A DNA stretch of 24,980 bases from Desulfobacterales bacterium (GTDB taxonomy: Bacteria > Desulfobacterota > Desulfobacteria > Desulfobacterales > UBA5852). Below, one piece after another: positions 17,853 through 24,980 of this stretch. The position numbers and the translations under genes were made by a program. The notes below the pieces were generated by a model. That model was given only the letters and a program-made list of their open reading frames with translations. It searched no databases and was not told where the DNA came from. The DNA lies in assembly GCA_030066135.1 (NCBI GenBank), contig JASJCD010000018.1:1-24980 (forward strand), read 5' to 3'. Position 1 is the stretch's first letter. Each line of letters starts with the position of its first letter.

Positions 17853-18176
17853 GGGGGGCTAATACAGATTTTAAGGCCTCAGGTAGCTTCCCGTATGCTT
17901 GGTCGATCTGTTGGGGTTTGCTTTTTCCCCTTTGTAGGCACCGAGGCATTGAACGGAGCAGGCCCGCGGACTGTCTGAGCGCAGCGAGTTTCCGCGGGAC
18001 CCGTTCAATGCATTGACGCGCAGGATTAAGCGGGACACGGGCGGTTTCTTTTGGTTCGTTTTCTTTAACGCTAAAGAAAATGAACTAATCAAACCCTGAA
18101 GCCATGCTACGGACCGGTAGAACCTCTTCGAAGTCTCGACCAGAGGTGCAGGGTTTGGATCAAAACAAGCCTGACT
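17853..18176 (+). repeat. Repeat family A, full copy (about 320 bp), unclassified structured element
   Basis: About 85% identical to 21521-21832. Shared blocks: GCTTGGTC-ATCTGTTG, TTTTTCCCCTTTG, GACTGTCTGAGCGNAGCGAGTTTCCGCG, GGATTAAGCGGGACACGGGCGGTTTCTTTTGGTTCGTTTTCTTT, AAAGAAAATGAAC, ACCAGAG-TG-AGGGTTT-GATCA. Contains an AU-rich extended hairpin (GGTTTCTTTTGGTTCGTTTTCTTTA-ACGC-TAAAGAAAATGAACTAATCAAACC). Overlaps the 5' end of the ORF at 18104. Confidence 0.7.
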
Positions 18177-18499: not shown

Positions 18500-19015
18500 G
18501 TGGTCATCATTCCCCCCGATGACCTCTGGGCCCCCATCCAGGCCCTGCGCCAGGCGTACGACCGCAATTCCCGGCGTTGGATGCCGCATATCACGCTCCT
18601 CTACCCTTTTCGGCCACGGTCCGCGTTTGGGCAGGTCGCCCCTGCACTGGCGCAGACCTGTCGTCTGATAAAGCCGTTTGAGGTGCGTCTGCAACGCTTC
18701 GATTTTTTCGTGCACGGCTCCCGCAGCGCCACCTTCTACCTGGCCCCCGAACCGGCCAGTGCGCTCAGAGCGCTGCAGCGGGGCCTGCTGGAAAAGGTGC
18801 CCGACTGCAGCGACACGGGCCGGTTTGACGGCGGGTTCATCCCCCACCTCAGCCTGGGTCAGGCGCGCAGCCGGGAGGTCGAAGCCTTGTGCCGCCGATG
18901 GCAGGCCACCTGGCGTCCCCTGGCCTTCACCCTGGAAAAGGTCCACCTGATCTGGCGCAACGATCCGCCGGACGACATCTTTCGACACGGGCCGGTGCTG
19001 CCGCTGGGTCCATAA
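18500..19015 (+). CDS. 2H phosphoesterase superfamily protein (LigT/ThpR-like RNA 2',3'-cyclic phosphodiesterase / 2'-5' RNA ligase family)
   Basis: Two H-x-T/S-x motifs (PHITLLYPF and PHLSLGQ) with LigT-like spacing. The ORF is open from 18104, but its N-terminal 130 aa are Arg-rich low-complexity sequence overlapping repeat A. The start is placed at GTG 18500 to give a LigT-sized 171-aa product. An alternative TTG at 18320 is preceded by AGGGGG. Start is uncertain. Confidence 0.6.
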   Translation: MVIIPPDDLWAPIQALRQAYDRNSRRWMPHITLLYPFRPRSAFGQVAPALAQTCRLIKPFEVRLQRFDFFVHGSRSATFYLAPEPASALRALQRGLLEKVPDCSDTGRFDGGFIPHLSLGQARSREVEALCRRWQATWRPLAFTLEKVHLIWRNDPPDDIFRHGPVLPLGP

Positions 19016-19020
19016 AAACC

Positions 19021-19271
19021 AGCTGATGTTCTCACGCCAAGCCGCTCAGCGCGACAGAAAACCTTATACCTCACGCAAAGTCGCTAAGCTCGCAAAGGAC
19101 AGCACGTTTATTTATCTTGGCCTCCGGTCAATGCAAACCATTTCAATTTCTGGATTTAATCAAATCAGAAATTGAAATATCTGTTCTTGAGTAGTGCTTT
19201 GCGCCTTTGCGCCTCCGCGTGAGATATGCTTTTTACAGTTTCCATGCGATACTTGGCGTCTTGGCGTGGGG
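19021..19271 (+). repeat. Repeat family B, copy 1 (about 250 bp structured palindromic element)
   Basis: 5' arm has two TCACGC(C)AAG-CGC-AAGC-type subrepeats. Small hairpin TTGGCC-TCC-GGTCAA (19117-19131). Long hairpin ATTTCAATTTCTGGATT-taatca-AATCAGAAATTGAAAT (19140-19179). 3' arm CTTTGCGCCTTTGCGCCTCCGCGTGAG plus CTTGGCGTCTTGGCGTGGGG is the imperfect reverse complement of the 5' arm. Starts 6 nt after the stop of the 2H gene and ends about 120 nt before the 19393 start. Confidence 0.7.
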
Positions 19272-19392
19272 CTATGCCGTTTTAAGTACCACGTGTCAGG
19301 TCGGACAAGCTTCAACCGACAAACTGTCAATGCACCGTTTAACGCATCAGCTCGCGCGAGCCTGAGCAGAATTTTGAAGGGAGTTTAGAGAG

Positions 19393-19890
19393 ATGAGAAT
19401 ACTAACCGCCATCATCGTATTGGCGTTTTGCGCCAGCGCCTATGGCAGCCAGACCGCACAGAATCCCGAGGAGGTCGGCAACGTCAACTGGGGGCGGGAT
19501 TTCGATGCGGCCCTCCAGATGAGCGCTGCCTCCGGCAAGCCCGTGCTGGTCCTGTTTCAGGAAGTTCCGGGCTGACCGGGGGTACGCGCGTTCGGCCGTG
19601 AAGTGCTGACCAACCCCCAGCTGGTAAAGGCCATCGAGGAAGAATTCATCCCGATGCTCGTCTACAACAACCGCAGCGGCGGCATGGACCGTGAACTGCT
19701 GGAGCGCTATGGCGAGCCCACCTGGAACTTTCAGGTGATCCGCTTTCTGGATGCCGAAGGAGAGGACATCATTCCCCGCAAGGACCGCGTCTGGACCACG
19801 AGCGGCGTGGCCCGGCGCATGGTCAAGACCCTCAGGGTCGTCAAACGCCCGGTGCCGGATTACCTGGAAAACCTCGCCGGAAACGAATGA
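19393..19890 (+). CDS. Periplasmic thioredoxin-fold protein (Thioredoxin_7 / DsbD-gamma-like) with in-frame TGA at 19573-19575: candidate selenoprotein, otherwise a nonsense-disrupted pseudogene
   Basis: Two track ORFs (19393-19575 and 19603-19890) are in the same frame, separated only by the TGA. The joined product is signal peptide (MRILTAIIVLAFCASAYG) + GKPVLVLFQEVPG-U-PGVRAF... + ...ELLERYGEPTWNFQVIRFLDAEGED. This aligns by eye to DsbD-gamma GKPVMLDLYADWCVACKEF...[22 protein letters not shown], with the TGA falling at the first Cys of the CxxC. RBS GAAGGGAG upstream. Confidence 0.55.
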
Positions 19891-20224
19891 CAACCCCTTC
19901 CCGAATCCGGATAGGTGCTAGAGCATATCGTCATCGGCGTCTCTTGTTTCCCCAGCGGGACGTCTACATGCACCCCCTTCCGACCGATGCTTCTGGTTCG
20001 CCTAAAAGGGTTCAAAATGATCGTAGAAGTCGGGCGTGCAAGGGGCCGGGGCATCGTCCCTGACAGGCGCGCATCGAGACCACCAGCGGTTAGGCTCAAC
20101 GAACAACCCAAAACCGTGGCAAACGCCCGGTTCCGGCTGACCTGCAAATCCTCGCAGGAATCCATTGACGGCATCCGTCAGATCAACACCGAGACCAAGG
20201 TGCCTATCAGGGACTGGTCTCTGC

Positions 20225-20431
20225 CTATTCCAGTTTAAAGGAGACTTTCAATTTGGTGCGATAGCCGACGATGCGGTTGTCCTCCAGGCGCATGTCCATT
20301 TGAACCACTTCCGCCACGCGGATGTCGCGAATGGAGCGGTCGACCGCACGCACGGCCGCCTTGGCTGCATCTTCCCAGGACTTTTCGGAAAACCCCACGA
20401 CTTCGATAACTTTGTAGACAGCATCATCCAT
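20225..20431 (-). CDS. Dodecin (small flavin-binding protein), 68 aa
   Basis: MDDAVYKVIEVVGFSEKSWEDAAKAAVRAVDRSIRDIRVAEVVQMDMRLEDNRIVGYRTKLKVSFKLE fits the dodecin family pattern (YKVIExVGxSxxSWEDA...LRDLRVAEV...YR.KLKVSF.LE). RBS GGAAAGGAG before the ATG. The track ORF 20225-21217 is an artefactual upstream extension. Confidence 0.8.
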   Translation of the reverse strand: MDDAVYKVIEVVGFSEKSWEDAAKAAVRAVDRSIRDIRVAEVVQMDMRLEDNRIVGYRTKLKVSFKLE

Positions 20432-20615
20432 GACAATCTCCTTTCCAAGTCGGATAAAGTTAATAGGAACCTGCTCTGCTTTTAAATGCTTTAAAAGGTT
20501 TGATCTGTTTTTGTGGTGAGACGAGCGACGTCGAAGAATCAATATGCGCTTTACTATAGTTAGGATCGCAAATCCCGAAATCAACATCCATGCATTCAAA
20601 TAGATAGAACGGACC

Positions 20616-21308
20616 TCAGGGACATGCAAACCTGTCGCGACCGTTGCGACGCAGCTGCGAGAAAAGCTCTCCGGCGGTAACGATCCGGGTGGCAACGGGC
20701 GTGCCGGTGGCGGCGATGGCCCTCGCCGCCCAGGTGTTGCAGGTGTTGAAGAGGTGAAAGGAACCTTGGGCGCGGTAAAAGCGGCTGGTGCCGTAGAGGC
20801 CCGGCCCCAGGGGGATGACCTCACCTTCCGGTCCGCGCGCGAAACTATCCCGGATGAAATCCAGCAGGCGCCCATAGGCGGATTGGCTGACGCATATATT
20901 AACGACCTCGCTGGCCGCAAAATAACGCGCCGGGTCCCCGGAAAAGCCCACGACGTGCATGACGCTGGCCGTGGGCCACAGGGCCGCCCGCAGGGCAAGG
21001 CCCGTTGAGGGCTCATCCGCCTGGTAGAAACGCGCATCCCCCCAGCCGATCTCGAGGTGCGCGGCACCGGAAAAATCCGCGCCAAGCAGGGGCAACCAGG
21101 ATGCCATTTCATTCTGGCCGACCACGATGCCCACGTGCCAGCCGTGCTTGACGACCTGAAATACTTTGCGTCGTTCTTCTTCGGGAGCGGTGCGCGGGGA
21201 GACCTCAGGGGCTGCACAGCCCGATGTGATGGCGATCAGCAGCGCCAGGCCGTAAAGGATACGCTTGAAATACCCCAGGCATCCGCGCTTGGTCATCTTG
21301 GTGTGCAT
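20616..21308 (-). CDS. DUF2459-like lipoprotein (TIGR02117-type conserved hypothetical)
   Basis: 230 aa. Lipoprotein signal LALLIAITSG-C. Conserved-looking blocks WHVGIVV, HLEIGWGD, and C-terminal NTCNTWAARAI. Family call is from memory, moderate confidence. Confidence 0.6.
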   Translation of the reverse strand: MHTKMTKRGCLGYFKRILYGLALLIAITSGCAAPEVSPRTAPEEERRKVFQVVKHGWHVGIVVGQNEMASWLPLLGADFSGAAHLEIGWGDARFYQADEPSTGLALRAALWPTASVMHVVGFSGDPARYFAASEVVNICVSQSAYGRLLDFIRDSFARGPEGEVIPLGPGLYGTSRFYRAQGSFHLFNTCNTWAARAIAATGTPVATRIVTAGELFSQLRRNGRDRFACP

Positions 21309-21520
21309 AGCAGCATAGTCGTCCCCGCAACCAATCTCAAAAATAATCCAAGTGCCCCTATATGCGTTATGATCCTACTCTTGGCAAAACCGTAGGGTCC
21401 CTGCCCTGCGAACCTGCATACATGTTAAATGCATGCTCCGCTTTCTCGTCGTCTCACGCCTTGCCAGGAACCCTAAGCTTAAATATGAGATAGGTTCTCT
21501 GTAAGGCTTCTTACGCAGAG

Positions 21521-21832
21521 CGGGGGGCCCCAGCTAGCCGCCCACAGGGGGCTTGGTCAATCTGTTGAGGTATAGGTTTTTCCCCTTTGTCCCGCGCCGA
21601 GCATCGACACGGCGGGCGGAATCAGCGCGCGGACTTGTCTGAGCGAAGCGAGTTTCCGCGCGCGCCGCTCGTTGGGGCGACGCACAGGATTAAGCGGGAC
21701 ACGGGCGGTTTCTTTTGGTTCGTTTTCTTTGCCGGGAAAGAAAATGAACAAACATAACAATAAAATCAGATCACGGATCGGTCCAAACTCGCTGGGTCCT
21801 CCACCAGAGATGGAGGGTTTAGATCACGACTA
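21521..21832 (+). repeat. Repeat family A, full copy 2 (about 310 bp)
   Basis: See 17853-18176. Hairpin loop differs (GCCGGG versus ACGC) with stems preserved. A distal hairpin CCTCCA-ccagaga-TGGAGG replaces CCTCT-tcgaagtctcgacc-AGAGG, keeping ACCAGAG in the loop. Lies between the DUF2459 and PEBP genes. Confidence 0.7.
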
Positions 21833-21864
21833 AACATGGGCGTCCTGTTGATGCGGCCCGGCGG

Positions 21865-22341
21865 CTACTGCCCCTTGGCATAGGTTCCCACCAGCTCCGC
21901 CCGTGCAAGAATGTGTCCCTGCATGGCCGCCTCCACCTGGGCCTTGGTGGGATTGCCCAGGCCCTCCAGGCGCGTGTCCAGGGCATAGAGCTTGTGGAAA
22001 TACCGATGGCGCCCGATCGGCGGGCAGGGCCCCCCGTAGCCGGTCCGCTGCCAGTCGTTCAATCCTTCCCCGGTGCCGGCCGGCAGATCGCGGTCCGCCA
22101 CGTCCTGCGCCAGGCCAGCATCCCCGGCCGGCAGGTTGAAGAGCACCCAGTGAACCCATGTCATCTTGGGCGCTTTGGGGTCCGGTGCGTCGGGATCGTC
22201 GACGATCAGCACCAGGCTGCGGGCATCGGCGGGCACTCCCGACCATGCCAGGGGCGGGGACACGTCCTGCCCCTCGCAGGTATACTGCTTCGGGATGGCG
22301 TCGCCGTCTTTGAAGGCCTCCGACTCGATTTTCATTGCCAT
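21865..22341 (-). CDS. YbhB/YbcL-family phosphatidylethanolamine-binding (PEBP / Raf-kinase-inhibitor-like) protein
   Basis: 158 aa from MAMKIES with RBS AAAGGAGAGG. Family blocks PPLAWSGVP, LVLIVDDPDAPDP, WVHWVLFNLPA, GYGGPCPPIGRHRYFHKLYALD. Confidence 0.85.
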   Translation of the reverse strand: MAMKIESEAFKDGDAIPKQYTCEGQDVSPPLAWSGVPADARSLVLIVDDPDAPDPKAPKMTWVHWVLFNLPAGDAGLAQDVADRDLPAGTGEGLNDWQRTGYGGPCPPIGRHRYFHKLYALDTRLEGLGNPTKAQVEAAMQGHILARAELVGTYAKGQ

Positions 22342-22908
22342 GTCGCCTCTCCTTTCGATCACGGGCCGCCCGGCAGGATCAGGCCGCCGGCCACCGCCGG
22401 GATCATGATGCTGAATTAAAGCAATATAATCATGATGACCACGCCCGGTGTATTGGCAGCCCCGACATCGACGGATGCGTCTGTCGATGGTATTCTGCGA
22501 CCTGGCCCGTCATGCATTGCCTTATCGTATCGATAATCAAAACTTTGCCCCAGATTCATTCCCGCCGCTGTTTTCCAGCTGGACAAAACGTGTCACTCCA
22601 CCTGACATATCATGTCCAGCCGTCCGCGAACCGGTCACGCCTAAAAATCCTTACCGCCTGATATCAATGTACAATCTGGACATCCACCAATACGGCACAG
22701 GATTTGCTTCAGATATAAGCGGATAAAATGAGTTAAGTCGATGATATGCACCCAACAAATCAACATGATGCATGGATATTGAAACCATATCGATATGGGG
22801 GCCACCGTGAGAAGTGCATTCGATTTTTTTGATATCGTGTCGGTCGTCATCGTTCTAACGGCCGTTCTTCGACTGAGCACCGTCAATTAGCGCAAACCAC
22901 AATCAGGG

Positions 22909-23106
22909 ATCACGCCAGACCGCAAAGCGCGACAGAAAACTTTATATTGGACGCCAAGCCGCGAAGCTCGCAAAGAAAATCAAAAGTTTTTATTTGGCCT
23001 CCGGCCAATGCAAACGGTTACCTTTTCTGGAATCGGAAGATTCAGAAAAGGTAACAATCCGTTCTTAAGCAGTTCTTTGCGCCTTTGCGACTCCGCGTGA
23101 GGAATG
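22909..23106 (+). repeat. Repeat family B, copy 2 (about 200 bp)
   Basis: TCACGCCAGACCGCAAAGCGCGACAG + GGACGCCAAGCCGCGAAGCTCGCAAAG arm. Small hairpin TTGGCC-TCC-GGCCAA (22994-23008). Long hairpin GTTACCTTTTCTGGAATC-ggaa-GATTCAGAAAAGGTAAC (23027-23055). 3' arm CTTTGCGCCTTTGCGACTCCGCGTGAGG. About 190 nt upstream of the 23295 gene. Confidence 0.7.
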
Positions 23107-23294
23107 CAGTTACCCGGCCCCGGGCCGGAGCCCCCGCCATTTCCCGGACCTTGAACCAGGATCATCATAGAGCCGCAGCCCCCGTTTTCCGGAATAAACC
23201 TGACTTGTTGACTTGACAGGTTTTTCGTCCTACACACGATATGTCTCCACGTGATGGCAACGATTGCTTATAGACCCTTTTTCTGTCAGCCGGC

Positions 23295-23675
23295 ATGAGT
23301 ATCGTATATTCCTTTGAAGACGATTATGTCCTCGTGACCCCCATTGGTTTCAATACCTTTGAAGACGTCTCCACGGCTTTCGAGATGATCGCGGCCGCCC
23401 CGGCTTCCAATCGACCCGCCAGGGTGCTTTTCGACGGGCGCCAGACCAACTACGGCCCGCCGGGTGAAGAGCTTGAAATGCTGGCCGAGTTTCTGGGAAG
23501 ACACGATGCTTACCGCGGCAGCCGTTGGGCCATCATCGCGATCCCGGATACCCTGGTGTTCGCACTCAGCCGCATGTATACCGCTCTGGCCGAAGACCAT
23601 GGCATGTACGCCGAAACCTTTACCGATTTCGAGGCCGGCCGCGCATGGCTCATGCAGCCCCAGGCCGCCCATTGA
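23295..23675 (+). CDS. Hypothetical protein, 126 aa (possible STAS/SpoIIAA-like fold; tentative)
   Basis: Clean ORF with sensible composition. No family recognised with confidence. Flanked by family B copies 2 and 3. Confidence 0.5.
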   Translation: MSIVYSFEDDYVLVTPIGFNTFEDVSTAFEMIAAAPASNRPARVLFDGRQTNYGPPGEELEMLAEFLGRHDAYRGSRWAIIAIPDTLVFALSRMYTALAEDHGMYAETFTDFEAGRAWLMQPQAAH

Positions 23676-23717
23676 GTCGATCCGTCCCCTCGCCTCCATG
23701 AGGCCGCCAAGCCTGAA

Positions 23718-24022
23718 AAGAAAGACAACTCCAAAGCTCACGCCAAGCCGCAAAGCTCGCAATGGAAAGCTATTGGTTTTAGTTCCTCGGTCGCAGACCG
23801 ATGCAAGCCGTTACCTTTTCTGGAATCCAAAGGATTCAGAAAAGGTAACTATCTGTTCTTAGGCAGTTCTTTGCGCCTTTGCGTCTTTGCGTGAGGCATG
23901 CTGTTAGCAGTTTCAACTTGGTCCCTGGAGCATTAGCGTCTGTCGTCTCCGCGTGAGATATGCTTCTCGCAGTTACTATGCAGTTCGCGGTGTATTCGCG
24001 TGAGGTAAGGGAAGGTAAAGGC
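23718..24022 (+). repeat. Repeat family B, copy 3 (about 300 bp)
   Basis: GAAAGACAACTCCAAAGCTCACGCCAAGCCGCAAAGCTCGCAA arm. Small hairpin TCGGTC-GCA-GACCGA (23787-23801), a different sequence giving the same structure. Long hairpin GTTACCTTTTCTGGAATCC-aaa-GGATTCAGAAAAGGTAAC (23810-23849). 3' arm has three GCGTGAG subrepeats and ends GTGAGGTAAGGGAAGG. Starts 43 nt after the 23675 stop and ends at the stop of the convergent 24043 gene. Confidence 0.7.
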
Positions 24023-24042
24023 AGCGCCGGACCTCGCTGGCA

Positions 24043-24474
24043 TCATCCGCCGGGCTTGCCGGCCATGATAGCATCCTTGATCATGGCATCGAGCCTGTCC
24101 ATCATTTTGTGTTTGAAGCCCAGCCGCTTGGCATCGGCGAGATAGGCCCCCGCCTTGTCGGGGTCGTTTCGAAAGCGCATATGCACCACGGCCAGATCCC
24201 AGTAGGGCGCGGCAAGGTAGGGGTCGAGAGCAATGGCTTCCTCGAAAAGCGCGCACATCGTATCGATCTGCTCCGGTGATGGCGCAATGCCGGCCTGGTC
24301 GCAAGCCGTCATGATGGCCTCCCCTTTGCCTCCACGCGCCCTGGCGGCCCGCAGCTTCAAGTCAGGATTGTCGGGATCCTTCTCCCGGAACCGGTCCACA
24401 TAGGCAATCGCATCGTCCTGGCGCCCGGCCTTGAGCATTTCCGCATATTCAAGCTTATCGAATTCTTCGCCCAT
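24043..24474 (-). CDS. Hypothetical protein, 143 aa (helical, possibly TPR-like)
   Basis: ORF with RBS GGAAAGGTAAGT before the ATG. Lys/Asp-rich helical composition. No family recognised. Confidence 0.5.
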   Translation of the reverse strand: MGEEFDKLEYAEMLKAGRQDDAIAYVDRFREKDPDNPDLKLRAARARGGKGEAIMTACDQAGIAPSPEQIDTMCALFEEAIALDPYLAAPYWDLAVVHMRFRNDPDKAGAYLADAKRLGFKHKMMDRLDAMIKDAIMAGKPGG

Positions 24475-24513
24475 ACTTACCTTTCCATATCTTCGATTAA
24501 CTGACAGCTAACA

Positions 24514-24835
24514 GAGAAAGACAACTTCAGGTTTCACGCCAAGCCGCAAAGCACGCCAGAAAAGCAACAACATTTCTCACGCAAAGCCGCCAAGCCCGCA
24601 AAAAAAACCAATATGTTATCTTTCGGCCTTCGGCCGAAGCATCCCGTTACCTTTTCTGGAATCCAACGGATTCAGAAAAGGTAACAATCTGTTCGCAGCC
24701 GTTCTTTGCGCCTTAGCGTCTTTGCGTGACAAATATGGCCGTTAATGCTTTATCTGCGTTCATCTGTGTCAATCTGCGGCCAACTAATCTGTTCTTGTGC
24801 CTCAGCATCATGGCGTGAGGCAAGGGAAAAAAAAG
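24514..24835 (+). repeat. Repeat family B, copy 4 (about 320 bp)
   Basis: AGAGAAAGACAACTTCAGGTTTCACGCCAAGCCGCAAAGCACGCC + TCACGCAAAGCCGCCAAGCCCGCAAAAAAAA arm. Small hairpin TTCGGCC-TTC-GGCCGAA (24622-24638). Long hairpin GTTACCTTTTCTGGAATCC-aac-GGATTCAGAAAAGGTAAC (24646-24685). 3' arm CTTTGCGCCTTAGCGTCTTTGCGTGAC ... CATGGCGTGAGGCAAGGGAAAAAAAAGGGG. About 40 nt upstream of the divergent start of the 24474 gene. Confidence 0.7.
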
Positions 24836-24980
24836 GGGATTGAAATGGAAACCTGAGCGCGTCCGCTTGCCCAGGGCAGCCCATCCCCTCATCTCTTAGG
24901 CCGAATTCCGGCTGGCATTGATATTACCATACAGCGACCGCTGGACGATTTTTTCGTAAAGCGGTTGATGTTTCGTGCCC

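Follow-up and report, generated by a model that had tools for sequence, protein, structure and literature searches.

Four composite palindromes in a Desulfobacterales contig

We analysed a 24,980-nt stretch of Desulfobacterales contig JASJCD010000018.1 (assembly GCA_030066135.1), hereafter the window, which has a G+C content of 60%. In the region 19021-24835, the window sequence contains four composite palindromes, all on the + strand, whose arms recur elsewhere around genes of the GxxExxY nuclease family. These elements are about 190-310 bp long, multi-copy and devoid of any credible open reading frame (ORF). They are intergenic and lie amid ordinary genes, encoding a 2'-5' RNA ligase-superfamily (2H) protein, a thioredoxin-like protein, a DUF2459 protein, a PEBP-family protein, an unannotated 126-aa protein and a TPR protein.

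All four elements share one order of parts. One or two 5' blocks of CGCNAAG subrepeats with a (C/T)TCACGC head (the F arm) are followed by a GC-rich short hairpin of 6-7 bp, an AT-rich long hairpin of 18 bp with a bulged G on its 5' side, and a 3' arm of CTTNGCG subrepeats with a GCGTGAG end (the R arm). The arms are inverted arrays of 8-9-nt subrepeats, with the overall scheme CTCACGC-(CGCNAAG)n ... (CTTNGCG)n-GCGTGAG. Each copy has arms of at least two CGCNAAG and CTTNGCG units, and ends that read CACGC and GCGTG. Repeats of the CGCNAAG type presumably also yield spurious ORFs, such as ...FAPLRE..., the translation of TTTGCGCCTTTGCGTGAG. Copies 1, 3 and 4 add 3' modules and a second GCGTGAG-type end; the recurrent modules are e, which is ATGCTGTTAGCAGTTTCAATGC-like, and d, GATCTGCGTTCATCTGTGTCAATCTGCGGC, itself an array of ATCTGYG units.

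Copy 1 (19032-19271) has F-arm units at 19032-19053 and 19070-19098, a short hairpin at 19117-19131, a long bulged-G hairpin of a variant type at 19139-19179 and an R arm at 19197-19223, followed by module e (19224-19247) and a second R arm (19252-19271). Copy 2 (22910-23102) consists of F-arm units at 22910-22931 and 22949-22975, the two hairpins at 22994-23008 and 23017-23055, and an R arm at 23075-23102. Copy 3 (23700-24005) begins with a degenerate distal F unit (23700-23720) and an F arm (23737-23765); its hairpins lie at 23787-23801 and 23810-23849, its R arm at 23869-23896 and its module e at 23897-23917, and more GCGTGAG ends are found at 23938-23958 and 23992-24005. Copy 4 (24533-24820) comprises F-arm units at 24533-24559 and 24576-24604, hairpins at 24622-24638 and 24646-24685, an R arm at 24704-24730, module d at 24751-24783 and a terminal R-like end at 24801-24820. 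A GC-rich palindrome, CCGGCCCCGGGCCGG, lies directly 3' of copy 2 (23110-23135); it is kept in the related contig L151 and not in L144.

The first-pass annotation of this DNA had described four same-strand palindromic elements with subrepeat arms, and all four could be located; the 26-nt R-arm pattern CTTTGCGCCTTNGCGNCTNNGCGTGA occurs four times in the window, against 0.00 expected from 100 shuffles. The same annotation had given the elements a common end, GCGTGAGG-AAGGGA, and had likened AAGGGA to a ribosome-binding site. This end is present in copies 3 and 4 only, and no + strand gene follows it in either, so AAGGGA does not serve as such a site here.

Between copies 2 and 3 lies a small-gene unit on the + strand (23195-23700), made up of a promoter-like upstream region and the 126-aa ORF (23295-23675), for which searches of Pfam and NCBIfam returned no match. 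The interval between copies 3 and 4 holds the gene for a 143-aa TPR protein (24043-24474), on the - strand and hence opposite to the elements. Among the 20 window ORFs scanned, no domain of a transposase (including Y1), integrase, recombinase or reverse transcriptase was found.

The hairpins covary and the arms do not

Every copy folds better than all of its own shuffles, with z-scores of -3.2 to -5.4. In an alignment of 33 copies from the window and from metagenomes, the short and long hairpins are 97% paired. Two-sided changes occur at 2 of the 6 pairs of the short hairpin and at 6 of the 18 pairs of the long one, where part of the stem was fixed by the search pattern and only the outer pairs are informative. 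The covariation score was matched by none of 500 shuffles, and both internal hairpins are real. Within the window itself we count about eight compensatory changes (about six in the long hairpin and two in the short), fewer than the more than ten base pairs claimed initially.

The arms behave differently. At the free N, mirrored CGCNAAG and CTTNGCG units have complementary bases in 13 of 33, 12 of 31 and 17 of 33 copies, which is the level of shuffles, so arm-to-arm covariation is absent; in this the arms are like motif arrays and unlike a maintained long helix. Complementarity beyond the arms shows a small excess (1.04 versus 0.43 nt), attributed to end bases that are partly conserved.

The long hairpin of copy 1 differs in sequence from those of the other copies and is equally well paired, as had been noted, and had been counted towards compensatory change. 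The difference is real; the explanation is another one. Two types of long hairpin are in circulation, of which copy 1 has one; the orthologous site in L133, with flanks 92.6% identical, bears the other, so module replacement accounts for the difference and stepwise compensatory mutation does not. The earlier argument for structural selection holds for the two hairpins and not for the arms, and is weakened by this module swap. The bulged, extrahelical G is conserved in both long-hairpin types. Wobble pairs show no clear strand preference (five G-U pairs on the + strand versus two on the - strand), so that RNA, single-stranded DNA and a dyad protein site are indistinguishable on this basis.

Arms across phyla and their association with a GxxExxY nuclease gene

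We used a search pattern consisting of the R arm with 22 specified bases, for which about 0.07 chance matches are estimated in the 596-Gb genome collection searched. The pattern matches at least 120 genome contigs from at least 10 phyla, as well as 37 viral contigs. Among the matches listed, to which the following counts refer, record titles name the cyanobacteria Nostoc, Calothrix, Cylindrospermum, Anabaena and Nodularia; other taxa are Planctomycetota, Acidobacteriota, Verrucomicrobiota, Lentisphaerae, Chloroflexota, Bacteroidota and Desulfobacterota, together with Alphaproteobacteria (Sphingomonas group), Gammaproteobacteria and Zetaproteobacteria. The typical locus is a short palindrome of the form CTCACGC-(CGCNAAG)2-5, a centre of 5-225 nt, and (CTTNGCG)2-5-GCGTGAG. 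When the window was compared by BLAST with the 120 arm-bearing genome loci, the arms alone matched, which marks the two-hairpin core as a lineage-specific centre. A BLAST search of a plasmid collection with copy 3 gave no match.

F and R arms lie 5-225 nt apart or, in a second cluster, 390-480 nt apart. Seven of the nine gaps in this second cluster contain an ORF of about 125 aa that belongs to the GxxExxY family (TIGR04256, E 6.5e-42; PF13366, PDDEXK_3). When the ORFs of the 120 loci were clustered, only GxxExxY recurred tightly by the arms, with 13 ORFs at 11 loci, of which 11 ORFs lie no more than 36 nt from an arm. A hidden Markov model (HMM) scan found the family in 12 of the 120 genome loci and in 5 of the 36 metagenome loci described below. 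The arm-bracketed units measure 430-650 bp and share their ends with the elements studied here; gene-less arm forms are far commoner than gene-bearing ones.

The catalytic D...ExK residues are invariant in the GxxExxY proteins compared. An AlphaFold model with a predicted local distance difference test (pLDDT) score of 92 has its best fold matches in Cas4 proteins (SSO0001, Pcal_0546) and lambda-exonuclease-type nucleases; GxxExxY is a predicted PD-(D/E)XK nuclease with a Cas4-like fold. Comparison with PADLOC and PHROGs gave weak similarity to the Cas4 core only, PADLOC matched no known defence system, and a sequence search of the Protein Data Bank returned no homologue. The family is large, with 28,701 clusters at 50% identity. 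Many of its genes lie on very short contigs, which would fit repeats that break assemblies.

Several further observations concern the gene and the arms. Some GxxExxY representatives of 275-295 aa hold two tandem domains (e.g. P0121, P0122 and P0125). An identical GxxExxY protein (P0084, Trichlorobacter) is encoded in contigs L201-L205 inside a toxin-antitoxin island (MNT/HEPN, Unstab_antitox, PIN); these contigs differ in the genes that lie downstream and in the number of repeat units, which suggests recent rearrangement at the arrays. Elsewhere, differing short tandem arrays stand beside CGCNAAG arms, namely CTGCTAT/TTGTCAT, TTTCGAG, TTTTCGA and CCCTCCTT (L025:5640-5760, L013:4890-4990, L036:4700-4900, L041:2800-2900 and L100). 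Arms built of tandem subrepeats may be more widespread and come in many sequence types. A full-text literature search with the family names and arm strings, mostly outside subscription journals, found passing mentions of the family and no account of the repeats or of the gene-repeat association.

Arm types correspond to nuclease clades

Distant relatives of GxxExxY were then considered, fetched by protein similarity alone and not selected for arms. At the viral loci, inverted arms of 46-77 nt that are 72-98% complementary and 417-609 nt apart are present in 5 of 6 distinct loci. The arm sequence shifts with the clade of the nuclease, between CGCNAAG, CACNAAG and AT-rich units. In the window-type clade, whose members are 54-64% identical to the first sequence across Chloroflexota, Nostoc, Verrucomicrobiota and Deltaproteobacteria, CGCNAAG arms with CTCACGC ends are found in every case read. 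The viral locus L195 has CACAAAG/CACGAAG units, and L196-L200 have AT-rich units with GCTTCGCTTGAAAT ends.

The L195 clade was sampled by a second protein search, made with the L195 protein, and four contexts encoding proteins 58-87% identical to it were read: L218 (a phage head-tail module), L221 (Rhizomicrobium), L223 and L226 (Marinilabiliaceae), one of the four being from a metagenome. All four have CAC[ACG]AAG / CTT[TGC]GTG arms with ACCAC/GTGGT ends that abut the start and stop codons. Such clade-specific arms would be expected if every nuclease lineage recognised arms of its own. In the phage context (L218:701-1090, a Logan SRR28211871 contig), the CACNAAG-armed GxxExxY gene lies on the strand opposite to its two neighbours, an HK97-gp10-like and a phage connector-like gene, a placement typical of free-standing selfish nuclease genes in phages.

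Elements in related metagenome contigs

A scan of metagenome contigs with the long-hairpin core identified about 44 copies on 36 contigs. Almost all have the F arm upstream and the R arm downstream. The elements are mosaics of modules, with F blocks that often repeat at a 42-45-nt period, and module d resembles the units that flank the GxxExxY gene of L194. Adjacent elements on one contig are co-oriented in 27 of 27 pairs, many of the contigs being orthologous; GC skew against element orientation is uninformative (-0.01), and its loci are not independent. Five of the hairpin-core contigs, from the same population (L121, L123, L137, L143 and L149) bear intact GxxExxY genes between co-oriented elements, and seven F arms are directly preceded by the intact or fossil 3' end of such a gene (...VVNGLE and the stop codon).

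Comparison of orthologous regions reveals three kinds of polymorphism, with breakpoints inside the elements. In L131, a single hybrid element combines the left part of copy 2 with the right part of copy 3, and the window segment 23113-23719, including the 126-aa gene, is absent; the crossover falls inside a stretch in which the two elements are homologous. At the place of copy 1, which stands alone in the window, L136 has two elements with a pair of radical-SAM genes between them. Tandem runs of elements are present in L144 and L121 where relatives have one (L121 compared with L123). In L144, three to four tandem elements precede the 143-aa TPR gene, and the 126-aa gene unit (23195-23700) sits without elements around it. 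The orthologous site of copy 1 bears an element in L133, L141 and L136, orthologues of copy 3 are found in L131 and L151, and the element after the 2H gene is kept in contigs with flanks 75-93% identical. The presence/absence variation seen consists of element-gene-element arrangements versus a single element and of tandem copy number; a search for filled and empty sites yielded only an unrelated "family A" insertion and a 230-bp segment. Variation between strains, raised in the first-pass annotation as a point of comparison, was accordingly observed for element-gene-element versus hybrid arrangements (L131, L136) and not as a clean filled/empty pair for a single element. In this genome, the elements mark a region of small-gene gain, loss and movement between strains.

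Relation to known repeat systems

The closest structural analogy is provided by miniature inverted-repeat transposable elements (MITEs) and their parent insertion sequences (ISs). The four copies are small, non-coding and multi-copy, every complete copy has an F and an R arm as terminal inverted repeats, and these repeats are the same as those that bracket the coding version. The elements here differ from MITEs in lacking target-site duplications, in having internally repetitive arms and in being mosaic and often tandem, and the parent unit differs in encoding neither a DDE transposase nor any other that is known. Across 54 simple elements, the longest substring common to both flanks averaged 3.11 nt, compared with 3.11 nt in shuffles, and no duplication is visible at the four window copies. 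Three readings had been offered initially: a gene-plus-structured-site cassette arrangement, a shared leader/terminator RNA module and a MITE family with long imperfect inverted arms. The last comes closest, given the non-coding, multi-copy, intergenic elements whose arms bracket a coding unit elsewhere. Against it stands the absence of target-site duplications and of a known transposase, the partner being a PD-(D/E)XK nuclease of about 125 aa.

Repetitive extragenic palindromic (REP) sequences, their inverted doublets (REPINs) and the associated RAYT transposases offer the closest functional analogy. Both systems have short intergenic palindromic repeats in many copies, without target-site duplication and with inverted doublets able to form hairpins, and in both a single small nuclease-type gene is flanked by repeats whose sequence is specific to the enzyme lineage. 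However, the flanked gene here is GxxExxY/PF13366 and not a RAYT gene; the protein belongs to the PD-(D/E)XK (Cas4-fold) class and not to HUH/Y1, and the arms are 8-9-nt subrepeat arrays with a CTCACGC head in place of a 20-40-nt palindrome with a GTAG head. REPs are known as species- or genus-specific, whereas one arm type here spans at least 10 phyla. Since the defining features of REPIN-RAYT and MITE-IS systems fail (HUH enzyme, GTAG head, target-site duplication, transposase), we regard the elements as working like both and as members of neither.

Free-standing homing endonuclease genes, which include PD-(D/E)XK types such as I-Ssp6803I, resemble the GxxExxY gene in being very small nuclease genes between conserved genes, including a phage structural module (L218), with a patchy distribution across phyla. 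They are not known to have clade-specific inverted tandem-repeat arms or abundant gene-less arm pairs. GxxExxY genes may also occur in 23S rRNA intervening sequences, to which curated family notes link them; the 20 loci scanned show no rRNA context and do not support this. The 23S rRNA intervening sequences of Coxiella carry small ORFs for an S23p/four-helix-bundle protein (PMC4990558). As small selfish units with one ORF between inverted repeats able to pair, intervening sequences resemble the arm-bracketed unit, but the ORF family is different, as is the genomic context of the 20 loci scanned.

Proposed origin of the elements and alternatives

Our moderately favoured reading takes the four elements for gene-less, non-autonomous repeats, similar to MITEs and REPINs, that derive from a selfish element associated with GxxExxY and also serve as recombination substrates; the mobility of that element and the action of the nuclease are what we infer. 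Plausible, though short of probable, is the wider claim that GxxExxY and its clade-specific inverted tandem-repeat arms form an unrecognised minimal mobile element found across phyla, with abundant gene-less derivatives of which those in the window would be an elaborated lineage form. We propose with the same tentativeness that the autonomous unit might be of about 430-650 bp with a Cas4-fold PD-(D/E)XK nuclease as its sole gene, and that its derivatives might drive small-gene shuffling in bacteria and phages.

We hypothesize that a GxxExxY nuclease from another locus of the genome would recognise the gene-less elements in trans, via the subrepeat arrays; the absence of arm-to-arm covariation is as expected for arrays of recognition motifs. 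Break-induced copying or gene conversion, probably by way of single-stranded hairpins, could then spread the elements or keep them homogeneous, a route that would explain why the bulged G is conserved and co-orientation is so strict. At their sites, the elements would serve above all for recombination, by which small genes nearby are shuffled, deleted or captured. If this is correct, the GxxExxY family, annotated by name only, would gain a context as a selfish nuclease with a cognate repeat, and an intergenic repeat class in at least 10 phyla would be explained. It would further represent a second, enzymatically unrelated case of a relationship of the REPIN-RAYT type, and the correspondence of arm and clade would offer a natural set of protein-DNA specificity pairs.

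Several observations weigh against this proposal. The HMM scan found no GxxExxY gene or fossil in the 25-kb window, so a partner elsewhere in the genome has to be assumed. Related contigs offered no clean filled/empty site for any single element, and the flanks of the elements bear no target-site duplication. Arm pairs occasionally enclose other small genes (KGK and DUF2007 domains), and a PD-(D/E)XK protein of about 125 aa is not known to have transposase or homing activity. The persistence of the element at the 2H gene is as compatible with a feature that is retained and possibly useful as with a parasite. Finally, among the 37 elements with a callable upstream gene, 28 have the same orientation as that gene and 9 the opposite one, which also fits a role at the RNA level.

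These last two points lead to the strongest alternative, a host-useful RNA module that is transcribed with the upstream gene and acts as a 3'-end stabiliser, a processing site (e.g. an RNase III substrate) or an insulator. The elements do lie shortly after stop codons, persist at orthologous sites, fold well below shuffles and contain covarying hairpins. Nevertheless, we consider such a module unlikely. Rfam gave no match at gathering score in the whole window, and at E<=10 the region 18900-24980 gave chance-level microRNA and small-RNA matches only, at least 45 bits under their thresholds. Terminator-like sites number 4 versus 6.9 expected and none coincides with the conserved hairpins, the promoter scan of the elements found nothing above background, and a tRNA/tmRNA scan returned nothing related to them. 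Orientation remains fixed beside convergent or divergent genes (copies 3 and 4). The shared leader/terminator module suggested at first is not supported by these results. The long arms do not covary, with the free position mismatched in about half of the copies, and a local regulatory RNA would leave unexplained an arm sequence common to at least 10 phyla and tied to a nuclease gene.

A second alternative holds that the bulged-G hairpin is a folded single-strand site for an integron- or Xer-like site-specific recombinase that moves single-gene cassettes. As in integrons, co-oriented structured sites with extrahelical-base hairpins (here in both hairpin types) alternate with single small genes (126 and 143 aa), and strains differ by cassette-like gain and loss, as seen in L131 and L136 and in the displaced 126-aa gene of L144. 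These polymorphisms bear out part of the gene-plus-structured-site cassette idea, for which neither an integrase nor an attC core was found. No integron integrase was found in the 20 window ORFs scanned, nor in the ORFs of related contigs covered by a partial scan. The hairpin, GTTACCT...AGGTAAC, has the reverse polarity of the attC R''/R' boxes (RYYYAAC...GTTRRRY), without a fit at RRR/YYY, and there is no R/L box consensus. At about 190-310 nt, the elements are 3-5 times longer than attC sites (57-141 nt) and have tandem-subrepeat arms, and the intervening genes lie on either strand. The L131 crossover inside the homologous element part is as in ordinary homologous recombination, and such recombination between direct repeats about 80% identical explains the L131, L136 and L144 differences equally well. 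We therefore regard dedicated recombination sites as improbable.

Just as improbable, in our estimate, are immobile arrays for a nucleoid-associated or regulatory host DNA-binding protein, with the GxxExxY link secondary (e.g. preferential landing): the fixed motif with one free base, the lack of arm-to-arm covariation and the clustered, site-stable elements would suit them, but the arm type tracks the clade of GxxExxY, the arms directly adjoin its start and stop codons in unrelated phyla and a phage genome, and a host factor would need to co-vary likewise, no such conserved host protein being evident. CRISPR is ruled out by the irregular spacing of 800-3900 nt and units of 200-300 nt, and an assembly artefact by the same architecture in many independent assemblies and isolate genomes. 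The first-pass annotation had likewise found no match to integron attC, REP sequences, bacterial interspersed mosaic elements or CRISPR; attC boxes and the GTAG head are absent, and the spacing and units are not CRISPR-like.

Other features of the window

The family A repeat is a segment of about 510 bp (21326-21835) with related copies at 584-703 and 17972-18162. The 21326-21835 segment is missing from the collinear contigs L131, L136, L144 and L151 and represents a true presence/absence insertion. No clean target duplication is seen for it, and in L137 its end interrupts an element of the kind described above. A 50-nt direct repeat (82% identical; 19842-19891 and 20120-20169) frames the segment of about 230 bp at 19892-20120, which is missing from L131, L136 and L151 and is a small local duplication or insertion unrelated to the four elements.

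At 14403-14480 (+), ARAGORN calls a tRNA-Asn with the unusual anticodon ATT, adjoining a divergent gene for an RtcR-type sigma-54 activator (12429-14039, -). This call may represent not a decoding tRNA but a tRNA-like RNA that belongs to an Rtc RNA-repair locus. Downstream of copy 1, the secreted thioredoxin-like ORF (19393-19890, +) contains an in-frame TGA at 19573-19575 within the motif ...FQEVPG-TGA-PGVRAFG.... Both the TGA and the coding sequence on either side of it are conserved in L154, L136, L151 and L131, and the ORF probably encodes a selenoprotein.

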